Positions 1 through 39,673 of a DNA stretch of 64,000 nt are shown here, piece after piece. The stretch covers positions 8,405-72,404 of the forward strand of contig JAFSSP010000002.1 of assembly GCA_017450945.1 (NCBI GenBank), in the 5' to 3' direction. The stretch's first letter is position 1, and every line of letters begins with the position of its first letter. Below the pieces are notes generated by a model. It saw nothing but the letters and a program-made list of their open reading frames with translations. It was not told where the DNA came from and ran no database searches. This DNA comes from Clostridia bacterium (lineage in GTDB: Bacteria > Bacillota > Clostridia > Oscillospirales > CAG-272). The translations under genes and the position numbers were made by a program.

Positions 1-425
1 GCGGAGTCGGCAAATCCACGCACACCGCGCTCTGGATCAAAGCGATCCCCGGTGCCACCGTGCTCAACGGCGACAAGCCGCTCCTTCGCATGAATGCGGA
101 CGGCAGCGTGACCGCCTTCGGCACGCCCTGGTGCGGCAAAGAGGGCTGGGGGATCAATTCGAGCGCCCCGCTCGGCGCCATCTGCTTTCTCGAGCGCGGA
201 ACCGAAAACAAGATCCGCCGCGCCACCGAGGAAGAAGTGCTTTCCAAGATCGCCCACCAGCTTTACCTGCGCGGCACACGCACCACGATCGATCTGCAAT
301 TGCAACTGCTCAACCGGCTGGTATCCGCCCTTCCCTATTACGTCCTCTCCTGCACCATCTCGGAAGAGGCGGCAAAATTGGCTTACACAACAATGAAACG
401 AAACAAAGAGGAGTTTTCAAAATGA
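1..425 (+). CDS. HPr-kinase-like P-loop protein, C-terminal fragment (5' end outside window)
   Basis: Frame of ORF 60..425 stays open back to base 3 and reads GVGKSTHTALW (Walker-A-like) before the listed start. Its stop overlaps the next start (ATGA at 422-425). Confidence 0.5.
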   Translation, partial: GVGKSTHTALWIKAIPGATVLNGDKPLLRMNADGSVTAFGTPWCGKEGWGINSSAPLGAICFLERGTENKIRRATEEEVLSKIAHQLYLRGTRTTIDLQLQLLNRLVSALPYYVLSCTISEEAAKLAYTTMKRNKEEFSK

Positions 426-685
426 AGATCAATAAGGATTTTACCATTCAAAAAGTCGGCAGCTCGTTCGTTGCCGTCCCGGTCGGGGAAACCAGCAAAA
501 ACTTTCACGGCATGGTGCGTCTCAATGAGACCGGCGCGTTTCTCTGGAAAAAGCTGACCGAGGCCGACCAAACCGAGGATAGCCTTGTCGCCGCACTCCT
601 TGAGGAGTACGACGTTTCGGAGGAGCTCGCACGCAAAGACGTTCAAACGCTCGTTCATGCCCTGCAGGAGGGAAAAATCCTTTGA
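422..685 (+). CDS. PqqD-family peptide-binding (RRE-like) protein
   Basis: Internal ATG at 422 of ORF 131..685 gives 87 aa: MKINKDFTIQKVGSSFVAVPVGE..LNETGAFLWKKL..LEEYDVSEE. This is a typical PqqD/RRE pattern and size, and the gene is coupled to both neighbours. Confidence 0.7.
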   Translation: MKINKDFTIQKVGSSFVAVPVGETSKNFHGMVRLNETGAFLWKKLTEADQTEDSLVAALLEEYDVSEELARKDVQTLVHALQEGKIL

Positions 686-1158
686 TGGAAAACCGACTCA
701 GCATCGAAGAGCAACTCAAAAAAGAGGGCTTTTTTGTCAGCACCACGGCAGGCTACAGCATGTGGCCGATGCTCCGCAACCGCCGCGACCGCGTCATCAT
801 CCGCGCCTATGCGGAAAATGAGACGCCAAAAATCAACGACCTCGCCCTTTACCACCGCTCGGACGGCAAATATGTGCTTCACCGCATCCTTTGGGTCAAG
901 CCCACCCACTGCATCGCCCGAGGCGATAATACCTTTTTTCTTGAAAAGGTCAAATACAAAACCATCCTCGGCCGCGTCACCGAGTTCTATCGCAACGATA
1001 AGCACCATACGACCGACTCTTTTCTCTATCGGCTTTACGTCTGGGCCTGGCGCATTCTCTTCCCCGCCCGCTTCGTTTGCCACGCCTGCAAAATGATTTT
1101 TCATAAGCTTCTCTCCCGCGCAAAGCGCTTGGTGAAAAAGATCATAAAGAAAAAATGA
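685..1158 (+). CDS. S24/S26-family serine peptidase (SipW-like Ser/His type)
   Basis: GYSMWPML (nucleophile Ser box), VLHRIL (His where bacterial SPase I has Lys) and RGDN box. ATG at 685 overlaps the PqqD stop (TGATG). Confidence 0.65.
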   Translation: MENRLSIEEQLKKEGFFVSTTAGYSMWPMLRNRRDRVIIRAYAENETPKINDLALYHRSDGKYVLHRILWVKPTHCIARGDNTFFLEKVKYKTILGRVTEFYRNDKHHTTDSFLYRLYVWAWRILFPARFVCHACKMIFHKLLSRAKRLVKKIIKKK

Positions 1159-1165
1159 AAATGAT

Positions 1166-1441
1166 GCGGGAGGAACTTTTTGAAAAAAGTTCCTCCCGCA
1201 CCCTCTTCAAAAACTTGAACAAAAAGAAAAGCGCCTCGCCGGAATGACCGGTGCGGCGCTCTTCTATATCGTTCGTTTTTTCGGAAAGGGGACGAGCGCG
1301 ACCGCCCGCAGTGCGGGAAACAGGGAGCGGGAGGAGTGGCAGAGGTCGAAATTTTGGGAGCGCAAAGCGCGACCGAAAAATTTCGGGTACCTCAACAGGA
1401 ATGCGGGAAAACCTCTTTTTTTCAAAAAAGGGTTTTCCCGC
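1166..1441. repeat. Composite palindromic intergenic element, long form (hairpin A + central hairpin + module B + hairpin A)
   Basis: Collinear with 44710..44979. Hairpin GCGGGAGGAACTTTTTGAAAAAAGTTCCTCCCGC at 1166-1199 and GCGGGAAAACC..GGTTTTCCCGC at 1403-1441. Confidence 0.85.
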
Positions 1442-1451
1442 TCTCTTTCGT

Positions 1452-1811
1452 TACAGCTTCGCCTGTAAGCCGGGTTCTGTCATTGAAGACGGTCATCAAT
1501 CTTTGCGTCCCGTCGCCGGAAACGCTCCGGGCCGAAAATCGAGCCCGTGCCACCCCGGACATATGCCGGACAAGCGTCCTTGGGGTGTTGCTTCGGATAG
1601 GGTTTACAGCGGACCCATGTTACCATGGGAACGGGTGAGCTCTTACCTCGCCTTTCCATCCTTACCGCGTGCGCGGCGGTTTATTTCTGTTGCACTTTCC
1701 CGACGGTTACCCGTGGCTGACGTTATCAGCTATCCTGTCCTGCGAAGCCCGGACTTTCCTCACAAAACTACCTTGCGGCATGGTTCCGCGCGACCGTCCG
1801 GCGAAGCTGGT
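1452..1811 (-). ncRNA. rnpB: RNase P RNA, bacterial type A
   Basis: Minus strand carries GAGGAAAGUCCGGGCU, AGUGCAACAGAAAUAAACCGCC, GGUAAGAGCUCACC, AGAUUGAUGACCGUC and ACAGAACCCGGCUUA. P1 pairs CAGCUUCGCC with GGCGAAGCUG. Confidence 0.95.
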
Positions 1812-6899: not shown

Positions 6900-6988
6900 G
6901 GAGAGGTATCGAAGCGGTCATAACGAGGCGGTCTTGAAAACCGTTTGACAGCAATGTCACATGGGTTCGAATCCCATCCTCTCCGCCA
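6900..6988 (+). tRNA. tRNA-Ser (anticodon UGA), CCA encoded
   Basis: GGAGAGG acceptor, anticodon loop CUUGAAA, long variable arm, GGGTTCGAATCCC T-arm, CCTCTCC-G-CCA. Confidence 0.93.
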
Positions 6989-7232: not shown

Positions 7233-8870
7233 ATGGAAACCCGAGTGCTTGACGGCGAGCTGTTTTTGAAAATGGTGCGCTCCGGCGCGGCCAATCTGAA
7301 CGCAAAGAGACAGATCGTCAACGACCTGAACGTTTTTCCTGTCCCGGACGGTGACACCGGCGACAATATGTTTATGACCATCGACGCAGGTTGCGCGGAG
7401 TCTGCCGACAAATCGCTCGGAAAGACCGCAAAAACCGTGGCGGACGGCATGCTGCTCGGCGCCAGAGGCAACTCGGGCGTGATCCTCTCCAAGATCTTCT
7501 CGGGCATTGCAAACGGTCTTGCGGGAATCGAGAGCGCCGACGTCGGCGTCTTCGGGCAGGCCCTTGAAAAAGGGATTGAGTCCTCCTACGGAGCCGTTGC
7601 AAACCCGGTGGACGGCACCATCCTTTCGGTCAACCGCGACGCGGTCAAATTTGCAAATTCCAATCTCTCGGAGGGATCGACCTTCCAGAGCTATTTTGAT
7701 GATTTGATCGGCGAGATGAACGCGTCTCTCGAGCGCACGCCGGAGGAGCTCGCCGTCTTAAAAGAGGCCGGCGTGGTCGACAGCGGCGGCGCGGGACTCC
7801 TTTACATTGCCGAGGGCGCAAAAGCGCTGCTGGACGGATCCGAGCTTGCCTACACGGCAGGATCGGTATCGGCAAAAAAGATCGACGTCTCGACCTTTGA
7901 CGAGAACAGCACCCTCGAATTCGGCTACTGCACCGAATTTTTACTCCGCCTGCAAAACGCGAAAGTGCCGGTGGAAAGTTTTGACGAGCGCGTGATCGTC
8001 GACTACCTCATGGCAGTCGGAGAATCGGTCGTCGCCTTCCGCGAAGGGAGCATCTTAAAGGTGCACGTTCACACGATGCACCCGGGCGAAATTCTCAATG
8101 AATGCCAGAAGTACGGCGAATTTTTGACCTTGAAGATCGAAAACATGATGCTTCAGCACAACGAGGCGACCGTCAAAAATTCCTTTGAAACAAGAAAGCC
8201 GCACAAGAGATACGGGATCGTCTCGGTCGCATCCGGCGAGGGGATGAAAAAAACCTTTTTGGAGCTTGGCGTTGACTGCGTGATTGACGGTGGGCAGAGC
8301 ATGAATCCGCCGGTCGGAGATTTTCTCAGGGCCTTTGACGAGATCAACGCCGACGCGATTTTCGTCTTCCCCAACAATCCAAACATCCTGCTCACGGCAA
8401 AAGAAGCCGCGTCGCTTTACGATAAAAAAGCGATCCGCATCATTCCCTCGCGAACGGTCGGCGAAGGATACGCCGCAGTCTCCTGCCTCGACACCGAAAA
8501 TGAGAACGCCGACGAAGTCGAAGCCGGGGCGATCGAAATGATGGAGAGCGTGGTGACCGGCCTTGTTGCAAAGGCAAACCGGGATACCGAAAAGGATGAC
8601 GTTCTCGTCCGGGCCGGCGACTACATCGGCTACGACGGGCGCGAGAGGATCTACACCGACAAAAAGACAGCCGTGGAGGCCGCTCTTTCCCTTGCGGAGG
8701 CGTTAGGAGCAAAAAATTACGACGTTCTGCTTTTGATCTGCGGAAAGACCTCCGAAAAGGAGGCGGCCGACGGTCTTTGCGAAGTTCTTACAAAAAGTTA
8801 TCCGCGCACAGAAGTGATCAAGATCGACGGCGGACAGGCCGTGGAAGACTATATTTTGGTATTAGAATAA
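7233..8870 (+). CDS. fakA: DAK2-domain fatty acid kinase subunit (YloV/FakA family), copy 1
   Basis: NVFPVPDGDTGDNM DhaL/Dak2 motif. 545 aa, matching YloV/FakA architecture. Confidence 0.85.
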   Translation: METRVLDGELFLKMVRSGAANLNAKRQIVNDLNVFPVPDGDTGDNMFMTIDAGCAESADKSLGKTAKTVADGMLLGARGNSGVILSKIFSGIANGLAGIESADVGVFGQALEKGIESSYGAVANPVDGTILSVNRDAVKFANSNLSEGSTFQSYFDDLIGEMNASLERTPEELAVLKEAGVVDSGGAGLLYIAEGAKALLDGSELAYTAGSVSAKKIDVSTFDENSTLEFGYCTEFLLRLQNAKVPVESFDERVIVDYLMAVGESVVAFREGSILKVHVHTMHPGEILNECQKYGEFLTLKIENMMLQHNEATVKNSFETRKPHKRYGIVSVASGEGMKKTFLELGVDCVIDGGQSMNPPVGDFLRAFDEINADAIFVFPNNPNILLTAKEAASLYDKKAIRIIPSRTVGEGYAAVSCLDTENENADEVEAGAIEMMESVVTGLVAKANRDTEKDDVLVRAGDYIGYDGRERIYTDKKTAVEAALSLAEALGAKNYDVLLLICGKTSEKEAADGLCEVLTKSYPRTEVIKIDGGQAVEDYILVLE

Positions 8871-39298: not shown

Positions 39299-39375
39299 GG
39301 CGGGATAGCTCAGTTGGCTAGAGCAACCGGTTCATACCCGGTAGGTCAAGGGTTCAAGTCCATTTCCCGCTACCA
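39299..39375 (+). tRNA. tRNA-Met (anticodon CAU, elongator-like), CCA encoded
   Basis: GGCGGGA acceptor, anticodon loop UUCAUAC, ..CCCGCT-A-CCA end as in Bacillus elongator tRNA-Met. A lysidine tRNA-Ile2 identity cannot be excluded by eye. Confidence 0.85.
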
Positions 39376-39376
39376 T

Positions 39377-39451
39377 GGCCCGTTGGTCAAGAGGTTAAGA
39401 CACCGCCCTTTCACGGCAGTAACAGCAGTTCGATTCTGCTACGGGTCACCA
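39377..39451 (+). tRNA. tRNA-Glu (anticodon UUC), CCA encoded
   Basis: GGCCCGTTGGTCAAGAGGTTAAGACACCGCCCTTTCACGG.. is nearly identical in pattern to Bacillus tRNA-Glu. Confidence 0.9.
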
Positions 39452-39453
39452 CG

Positions 39454-39490
39454 AAAAAGCAGTGGTTTGTTTATCAAACCACTGCTTTTT
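39454..39490 (+). terminator. Terminator after the tRNA pair
   Basis: AAAAAGCAGTGGTTTG-tttatc-AAACCACTGCTTTTT. Confidence 0.85.
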
Positions 39491-39494
39491 CAAC

Positions 39495-39673
39495 GAAATC
39501 CGTCCTTACGGACGGGTGAAATCCACCTACGATGGGTGAAATCTGCTTTGCCGGTGATATCCGCACTTCGTGCGGGTAAACGGACGGATTTCATTTCACC
39601 GTGCGCGAAGTGGACGATTTCACCTGAGGGCACAGCCCGAAGATTTCACCGCAACGCCAGTTGCGATTTCACG
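39495..39673. repeat. Array of short variable hairpins each flanked by a GGTGAAATC / GATTTCACC core
   Basis: At least 7 copies of the 8-9 nt core: 2-3 forward, then 4-5 reverse. Cores are separated by small stem-loops such as GTCC-ttac-GGAC, CGCAC-ttc-GTGCG, GGGC-aca-GCCC and GCAAC-gcca-GTTGC. Confidence 0.75.

Follow-up and report, generated by a model that had tools for sequence, protein, structure and literature searches.

A three-gene operon of gut Clostridia joining a PqqD-type recognition element to an S26-like peptidase and an HprK-fold protein: a candidate RiPP-like maturation module

A 64,000-nucleotide stretch of DNA from a Clostridia bacterium (contig JAFSSP010000002.1, positions 8,405 to 72,404; this whole stretch is called the window below) opens with three translationally coupled plus-strand genes, designated O1, O2, and O3, which occupy its first 1158 nucleotides. 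A first-pass annotation had taken them for the tail of a maturation cassette for a ribosomally produced and post-translationally modified peptide (RiPP), cut by the window edge. We asked whether the rest of such a cassette exists, what the three genes encode, and on what their products could act. Our preferred answer, to which we assign a probability of about 0.6, is that the trio constitutes a phosphotransfer and leader-peptidase module guided by a RiPP recognition element (RRE), that this module is the core of a RiPP-like system, and that it acts in trans on unlinked precursors. The reference for the region beyond the window edge was L001, a 292-kb metagenome scaffold found by an exact-protein look-up, which agreed with the window at each of the 1300 bases compared (L001 position = window position + 9316). 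The features in question are the following.

1..425 (partial open reading frame 3-425), plus strand: O1, 3' two thirds of the gene (141 of 238 codons), 5' end cut; P-loop protein of predicted HprK/PEPCK fold, ScmC-like
422..685, plus strand: O2, 87 amino acids, PqqD family (Pfam PF05402)
685..1158, plus strand: O3, 157 amino acids, predicted Ser/His S26B-like peptidase domain (motifs, AlphaFold2 model, Foldseek)
1163..1202 (L001 10479-10518), no strand assigned: G+C-rich hairpin, 18 bp (terminator scan)

O1, O2, and O3 are real genes and not chance open reading frames (ORFs), since O2 has a Pfam match, the protein collection holds 1873 homologues of O1 and 80 detectable homologues of O3, and the adjacency of the genes is conserved. 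Their coupling, motifs, and junctions were borne out at every position given by the first-pass annotation. O1 enters the window mid-gene, its first residues there being the Walker A sequence GVGKST; it shares 4 nucleotides (nt) with O2 (ATGA, 422-425), and O2 shares 1 nt with O3 (TGATG, 683-687). The expected continuation of the cassette past the 5' edge, on the other hand, is absent. In L001 only 294 nt (98 codons) of O1 lie beyond the edge, the complete gene encoding 238 amino acids from a TTG start (L001:9025-9741), and the 9.3 kb upstream contain PPDK, pth, mfd, a gene for a 440-amino-acid lipoprotein, a thiamine pyrophosphate (TPP) riboswitch, and thiT; genes for a precursor, a cyclase, or a radical SAM enzyme are all missing there. 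The first-pass annotation had named an upstream extension free of precursors and modification enzymes as grounds for rejecting its cassette, and by this standard the idea of further RiPP genes upstream is refuted for this locus. Because its upstream neighbors are thiT, the lipoprotein gene, and mfd, the unit is a stand-alone operon rather than the tail of something larger, and window positions 1-1158 are the 3' end of a complete, self-contained three-gene operon with a promoter-like site of its own (TTGCAA-17-TAGAAT with an upstream TG), which lies past the thiT hairpin 5' of O1 and is accompanied by a Shine-Dalgarno sequence. The hairpin at 1163-1202 begins 5 nt past the O3 stop, between O3 and a convergent RNase P RNA gene, and forms the 3' boundary of the operon; it has a T-run on the minus strand only and an A-tract ahead of the stem on the plus strand, so that it would only presumably terminate the plus-strand transcript.

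We then determined how widely the trio is kept. A scan with O1 patterns, using one genome per species, matched 358 species-level relatives, and all 80 of the loci examined belonged to gut, rumen, or faecal Clostridia. O2 was present in 75 of these O1-anchored loci and O3 in 71, and O1 was followed directly by O2 in 66. The co-occurrence across Clostridia that had been proposed as a check on the first interpretation was thus found, with the genes adjacent and their order unchanged in about 66 of the 80 loci. About 62 species-level genomes have the trio in a compact, contiguous form, with frames and overlaps intact and in surroundings unrelated to one another; its neighbors vary (GH31, GerA/asd, ABC transporters, thiT), and clustering of the neighbor genes of all 80 loci revealed nothing conserved beyond the trio itself. 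Pairwise dN/dS against the window genes was 0.11 to 0.25 for O1, O2, and O3, with dS saturated, from which we conclude that the stand-alone trio is maintained by purifying selection. Clustering of the small ORFs within 600 to 700 nt of the 62 compact trios gave no universal precursor; it yielded only off-frame shadows of neighboring genes and a DUF3006-like ORF in 10 loci. This last ORF, of 57 amino acids (MEPKNY.VTRIEGEYAYL...), lies 9 to 55 nt past O3 in those 10 of the 62 loci (e.g., L020 7490-7663), is clade specific, and does not resemble a precursor.

The connection to peptides came from more distant relatives. Loci in which O1 is 36 to 50% identical to that of the window gain a PF14907 nucleotidyltransferase (E-values of 1e-43 to 1e-64), exporters, and radical SAM/SPASM proteins, and ScmE is among the best NCBIfam matches of these maturases. 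Small ORFs with a common N-terminal motif adjoin the trio in nine O1-anchored loci, and a profile built from these motif peptides retrieved 70 more. Their leaders follow the consensus MKYEKAxAEVVLFDNSDV[VI]T[AT]S, in which D17 and S22 are invariant (alignment A8), their cores are hypervariable and often Cys-rich or acidic, and no member matched a Pfam or NCBIfam model. The gene for one of the peptides, P0250, precedes an O1 gene by 125 nt.

Searching from the peptides provided an independent test of their association with the trio. All three look-ups of long contigs gave the same series: ScmC-like protein, PqqD, a 143-amino-acid O3, peptide, Radical_SAM, and ATP-binding cassette (ABC) exporter. 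A peptide-anchored metagenome scan, made with our own models only (O1, O2, O3, maturase, PF14907, a 322-amino-acid cluster protein, and the leader peptide), found trio genes in 46 of 55 loci; among the 40 contigs that measured 5 kb or more, 38 had them. All three trio genes were present in 32 of the 55 loci, the c93-type maturase in 24, and PF14907 in 31, and 20 loci carried two to four precursors in tandem; another architecture, seen in L138, has a different radical SAM enzyme. The window O1, O2, and O3 were 45, 46, and 37% identical, respectively, to their counterparts in one complete cluster, and within the compact clade itself one locus (L025, O1 63% identical) has a leader-family peptide 500 nt upstream of O1. 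The RiPP-like affiliation of the gene family is therefore upheld by relatives whose trio adjoins precursor peptide, radical SAM/SPASM, PF14907, and ABC exporter genes. A precursor gene with conserved leader and variable core stands beside the enzymes in these peptide-linked clusters, but neither in the window nor in L001.

Several features of these clusters are recorded here as observations. Leader-family genes repeatedly lie 20 to 70 nt past the stop of a gene for a large secreted multidomain protein (L025 1442-4401; L105; L092 1663-5917; L076 1021-4730; L162 1-1951; L163 887-2111). These proteins have Listeria-Bacteroides repeats, LamG/TIG domains, or no Pfam match, and the idea that they form one family was dropped, as they share only a short C-terminal similarity and differ in their Pfam domains. 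The complete clusters of the Lachnospiraceae type (L096-L104) have, within them and in their surroundings, three to five genes per cluster for proteins of about 530 to 600 amino acids with AAA-ATPase_like and PDDEXK_9 domains. Those of L096 and L097 are flanked by genes for GDP-mannose-dehydratase-type epimerases and a Bac_transf sugar transferase, and in the remaining loci of this group a Bac_transf gene also lies 3' of the cluster. Beside O1, low-complexity lipoproteins or membrane-anchored proteins rich in Ser, Thr, and Glu are encoded in several distant loci (L076 5578-5985; L093 5467-5946; L078 6760-7206; L081 1799-2239); those of L076, L093, and L078 were considered as substrates and rejected, being neither conserved nor present in most loci.

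Within the trio, O2 is the member most readily assigned. It matches Pfam PqqD (PF05402) with an E-value of 1.5e-17 and 64.1 bits against a cut-off of 23.4, over model positions 3-66 of 67, and this full-length match confirms its earlier designation as a PqqD/RRE protein; matches below threshold were found to the lasso, GeoRSP, SCM, and HPr-rel-A PqqD chaperone models. O2 is thus a discrete PqqD-family protein of the RRE type and would bind the leader. In 66 of 70 O1-anchored and 37 of 39 peptide-anchored loci the next gene is O3, and the two stay adjacent even where O1 has moved elsewhere in the cluster. Since the adjacency persists when O1 relocates, O2 and O3 fit an RRE-plus-protease pair like lasso B1/B2. 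The likeness to the lasso split-B pair (B1, PqqD-type RRE; B2, protease) is that a small PqqD protein is coupled to a small, anchor-free protease expected to remove the leader; the difference is that O3 appears to be a Ser/His enzyme of clan SF, while B2 has the transglutaminase-like Cys protease fold.

O3 carries the boxes GYSMWP (residues 23-28), LHRI (65-68), and GDN (80-82). Invariant in the family are S25 (GxSMxP), H66 (LHR), R79-G-D81-N82-T, Y118, W122, and R129, and across 37 O3 sequences this holds for S25, H66, and G80-D81-N82. The AlphaFold2 model (pLDDT 88.7) consists of a beta-barrel domain (residues 1 to about 110) and a basic amphipathic C-terminal helix of 44 residues (113-156). 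Foldseek aligned it with the LexA C-domain, UmuD', SpsB, SEC11A, and SipA (E from about 3e-3, TMt 0.5 to 0.63), and a profile search of the PDB placed the O3 Ser on the Ser of signal peptidase I and the O3 His on its Lys. Among the 37 family members, 32 matched the model of the archaeal/ER-type signal peptidase (TIGR02228; best E 1e-6, below the cut-off of 51.85 bits), 31 that of the nickel superoxide dismutase (Ni-SOD) maturation protease (sod_Ni_protease), 17 that of the bacterial signal peptidase I, and 15 that of SipW, all below cut-off; the window O3 gave an E-value of 0.067 against TIGR02227. Pfam S24 and S26 each matched only 1 of the 37 members, with E above 0.01, and Pfam scans returned nothing for O1 or O3. 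The N terminus of O3 (MENRLSIEEQLKKEG) is hydrophilic and runs straight into the Ser box with no transmembrane segment, so that the protein is apparently cytoplasmic.

By its model, O3 has the clan SF (LexA/signal-peptidase) fold and stands closest to the archaeal/SipW-type S26 enzymes; it is an outlying relative of S26 rather than a signal peptidase proper. The Ser/His arrangement of the SipW/ER type proposed earlier agrees with the fold, with the His at the Lys position, and with the TIGR02228 and SipW matches. With the S26B signal peptidases (SipW, Sec11, archaeal signal peptidase I) O3 shares GxSMxP, a His in place of the catalytic Lys, GDN, and the clan, and with SodX, the cytoplasmic S26 protease of Ni-SOD maturation, the lack of an N-terminal membrane anchor. 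It differs from both in scoring below the curated cut-offs, in its long basic C-terminal helix, and in always being paired with PqqD.

In two loci (L145 5289-7352 and L148 9143-11206) an O3 domain is fused to the N terminus of an ABC_membrane/ABC_tran exporter, giving a protein of 688 amino acids in which GTSMRP, LHRI, and RGDNT are kept, the C-terminal helix leads straight into the exporter, and the precursor gene lies just upstream of O1. This fusion argues that O3 is a leader peptidase and its helix an exporter-proximal element. It would be a peptidase-containing ABC transporter (PCAT) whose peptidase domain is of the Ser/His rather than the C39 Cys type. Canonical PCATs, in which a C39 domain is joined to an ABC exporter, are alike in that the fusion stands beside a precursor gene and the leader would be cut at export; they are unlike in the S26-like catalytic residues of the O3 domain and in that the window O3 is free-standing, with no linked exporter. 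The exporters of the distant relatives are of either the ABC_membrane or the Wzm/Wzt type. In L074, L076, L077, L089, and L090 a Wzm/Wzt-type ABC-2 exporter replaces the ABC_membrane type, and Wzt_C, a glycan-binding domain, is present in three of the Wzt proteins scanned; these versions hint at a glycosylated or glycopolymer-linked product.

The affinities of O1 emerged from its fold, a sequence search of the PDB having returned only noise. Its homologues, 60 to 65% identical, come from metagenome-assembled genomes of uncultured Clostridia and have the invariant motifs YCESICxYRxIC, SGVGKSTH, NGDKP, GTPWxGKE, and HQLYLRG. With an AlphaFold2 model of pLDDT 93, the best Foldseek match was PEPCK (3.8e-7), and Lactobacillus casei HprK/P followed at 1.1e-6 with a probability of 1.00. 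Neither the partial nor the full-length protein matched Hpr_kinase_N or Hpr_kinase_C of Pfam at E-values up to 1, and its N-terminal 75 residues, in a Cys-rich N-terminal part, differ from HprK/P. This agrees with the first-pass annotation, which had placed it among Walker A proteins of the HPr-kinase-like type. O1 would act like an HprK-fold phosphotransferase, yet it is not a member of HprK/P. Other curated models were matched far below cut-off: ScmC (TIGR04249) with 16.3 bits against 125 (E 0.005) and the HprK-related kinase A, HprK_rel_A, with E 0.026; a precomputed PF27840 match is weak for the window O1 and unmarked for many homologues. As an observation apart, a comparison of 24 diverse O1 sequences showed no variation at six Cys residues (C24, C59, C63, C69, C159, and C215), five of which distant relatives also keep; C159 and C215 are encoded in the window at nt 181-183 and 349-351. 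These Cys residues may form a metal or Fe-S site in this kinase-fold protein of an anaerobe.

Among the described gene sets close to the trio is SynChlorMet (SCM; ScmC, ScmD PqqD, and ScmE/ScmF; TIGR04248-04251), which likewise combines a ScmC-like protein with PqqD and, in the relatives of the trio, radical SAM/SPASM. Of these partners the window locus has the PqqD protein and no radical SAM gene within the 9.3 kb upstream and the 64-kb window. Further differences are the score of O1 against ScmC, the extra, invariant S26-like peptidase, and the host range of the trio, gut Clostridia. To our knowledge, going by the TIGRFAMs description, the SCM precursor and the substrate of ScmC-like proteins have yet to be identified. 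Formally, the trio belongs to the PqqD family only, and it falls outside HprK/P, S26 signal peptidase I, the lasso cluster, and probably also the ScmC equivalog as these are defined. In its workings the module would resemble a split-B lasso pair joined to a PadeK/PsmK-type kinase, and the clusters of the relatives a SynChlorMet-type set with export in the manner of a PCAT.

How might the three products work together? O2 would bind the conserved, beta-strand-forming leader of a small precursor peptide and hand it to its coupled partner O3, which would remove the leader by means of Ser25 and His66. The cleavage site that we infer lies, most plausibly, after the small-x-small motif T-[AT]-S. Type I signal peptidases prefer small residues at -3 and -1, a rule that this leader end fits. 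In the relatives O3 would work at an ABC exporter or fused to one. O1 would perform an ATP-dependent phosphotransfer on the peptide; this, the weakest step of the model, is proposed by analogy and with modest confidence. In the relatives, a PF14907 nucleotidyltransferase, a radical SAM/SPASM maturase, or both would add further modifications. In the lineage of the window the trio would act on substrates encoded elsewhere in the genome, and we infer such unlinked substrates because precursor, tailoring, and export genes are all unlinked, so that the trio must act in trans.

There is precedent for the phosphotransfer step. PadeK and PsmK, of the paeninodin and pseudomycoidin clusters, belong to the HprK family of kinases and place a phosphate on a Ser of the precursor (PMC6993621, PMC7533575), and in a Firmicute RiPP the NTP-transferase PsmN then adds hexose to the phosphate placed by PsmK (PMC6993621). 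The trio resembles PadeK/PsmK and the PF14907-type PsmN in having an HprK-fold enzyme and, in many relatives, PF14907 in a Firmicute RiPP-type cluster, and the frequent pairing of O1 with PF14907 mirrors PsmK/PsmN as a model for peptide phosphorylation followed by decoration of the phosphate. The likeness has limits: O1 lies outside the Pfam Hpr_kinase models and has a Cys-rich N-terminal part, the peptides do not end in a conserved Ser, and the window operon has no PF14907. Three clusters (L092, L145, and L076) have neither a core Cys nor a radical SAM gene, which suggests that O1 is a core modifying enzyme and not an accessory.

Several results weigh against the proposed module. Neither the 64-kb window nor the 9.3 kb ahead of it contains a leader-family peptide, a radical SAM maturase, a PF14907 gene, or a dedicated exporter; a search of the window for homologues of the radical SAM maturase and of the 322-amino-acid cluster protein was negative, and three successively broader leader hidden Markov models run against the window and L001-L095 gave no match in the window. 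Among the 62 compact-trio loci, L025 alone has such a peptide within 6 kb, and near-identical or related peptides occur in L105 and L163, whose short contigs bear no trio. There are linked cores, GPDFDEGDVGFGW in L076 for instance, that are devoid of Ser, Thr, and Tyr, so that a plain role of O1 as a core Ser/Thr kinase does not fit every case; its target may instead be the invariant T/S of the leader junction or an acidic side chain. The Foldseek E-values of O3 are modest and its similarity to S26 stays under every curated cut-off. Lastly, searches of the literature (ScmC/SynChlorMet, S26 with RiPP, HPr kinase with radical SAM/RRE, PF14907/PF27840) turned up no description of such a system.

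A bolder form of the proposal, which we advance only tentatively, is that the trio defines a RiPP class of the gut microbiome not described before, with O1 performing the class-defining modification, an RRE-dependent S26-type peptidase docked on the exporter or fused to it, and the stand-alone trio serving, in the Oscillospirales-like lineage of the window, as a trans-acting hub. The chemistry of O1 might then be other than Ser phosphorylation, candidates being the activation of an acidic side chain and the modification of invariant leader-junction residues, and the precursor genes would be scattered through the genome, often just after genes for large secreted proteins.

The main competing explanation is that the compact trio now serves the maturation of an ordinary protein of the cell, by RRE-guided removal of a pro-sequence and phosphorylation, much as cytoplasmic SodX serves Ni-SOD. 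It would account for the want of linked precursor, tailoring, or export genes, for the strong and even conservation of the trio over many genera (O1 at the 60 to 65% identity given above), and for its variable, housekeeping-like contexts, and it draws further on the 31 of 37 O3 members that match the Ni-SOD protease model and on the anchor-free N terminus of O3. However, wherever a relative allows a guess at the substrate, the trio goes with small leader-family peptides, the compact clade itself includes L025 with its peptide upstream of O1, and no candidate gene for a cellular substrate is conserved beside the trio. We therefore regard this explanation as rather unlikely, and keep to the peptide-maturation module.

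Another account of the missing genes is decay: the trio could be what is left, without present function, of a formerly complete RiPP cluster. In its favor, this locus and 61 of the 62 compact loci lack genes for a precursor, a radical SAM enzyme, a nucleotidyltransferase, and an exporter around the trio. We consider this improbable, given the low dN/dS of all three genes, the invariance of every catalytic-looking residue, the frames and gene overlaps intact in about 62 species, and the presence of a promoter-like site and a Shine-Dalgarno sequence.

Discrete PqqD proteins and HprK-fold proteins do occur together in Firmicute lasso-peptide clusters (PMC7533575, PMC6993621), and O2 has its sub-threshold matches to lasso PqqD models; the operon might accordingly be the tail of a paeninodin-type cluster whose cyclase and precursor lie past the window edge. 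With thiT, the lipoprotein gene, and mfd upstream, this is refuted for the present locus. Nor did the comparison with paeninodin drawn by the first-pass annotation find backing elsewhere: among 99 neighbors of 21 distant relatives no Asn-synthase-like cyclase (macrolactam synthetase) or transglutaminase-like B2 recurs, the gene tables of the three complete clusters list neither of the two lasso Pfam families (the other loci having been scanned with our own models only), the protease is S26-like, and the associated maturase is a radical SAM/SPASM enzyme. As a whole, the lasso interpretation is very improbable.

Hardly any credence can be given to O1 being a true HPr kinase/phosphorylase that serves carbon catabolite control and has unrelated neighbors, for it has the P-loop and the HprK/P fold but, as described above, lacks the Pfam Hpr_kinase matches, diverges over its first 75 residues, and in 66 of 80 loci has PqqD and O3 genes linked to it. 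A known defence system was ruled out, PADLOC giving no match.

Some further observations concern the surroundings of the operon. The convergent RNase P RNA gene (bacterial class A, full length, 236.5 bits) occupies window 1450-1809 on the minus strand, and two ORFs of 30 and 74 amino acids in public gene calls over it are spurious. Two tRNA genes directly followed by a Gut-1 RNA (RF01706, 64.8 bits) lie at window 39299-39565 on the plus strand, and another tRNA gene lies at 6900-6985. Upstream, in the stretch L001 7789-8252, the TPP riboswitch with its terminator-like hairpin is about 320 nt away from its thiT. The gap contains a 34-nt inverted repeat (7962-7995 and 8153-8186, 94% complementary) around an AT-rich spacer of 157 nt, which looks like an insertion of the miniature inverted-repeat transposable element type between riboswitch and gene.

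RRE-dependent peptide maturation as such is known. What looks new is a putative leader peptidase of the Ser/His S26 type, apparently cytoplasmic, that is always paired with PqqD and, in two loci, fused to an ABC exporter, of which we found no description in the searchable literature, and a family of conserved-leader peptides lying outside every Pfam and NCBIfam model. These peptides suggest candidate substrates for ScmC-like proteins. The role of a strongly conserved maturation module in genomes with no linked substrate is the puzzle that the compact trio poses for the biology of gut Clostridia. If the model proposed here is true, the trio together with the leader motif would provide a class-independent handle for RiPP mining.

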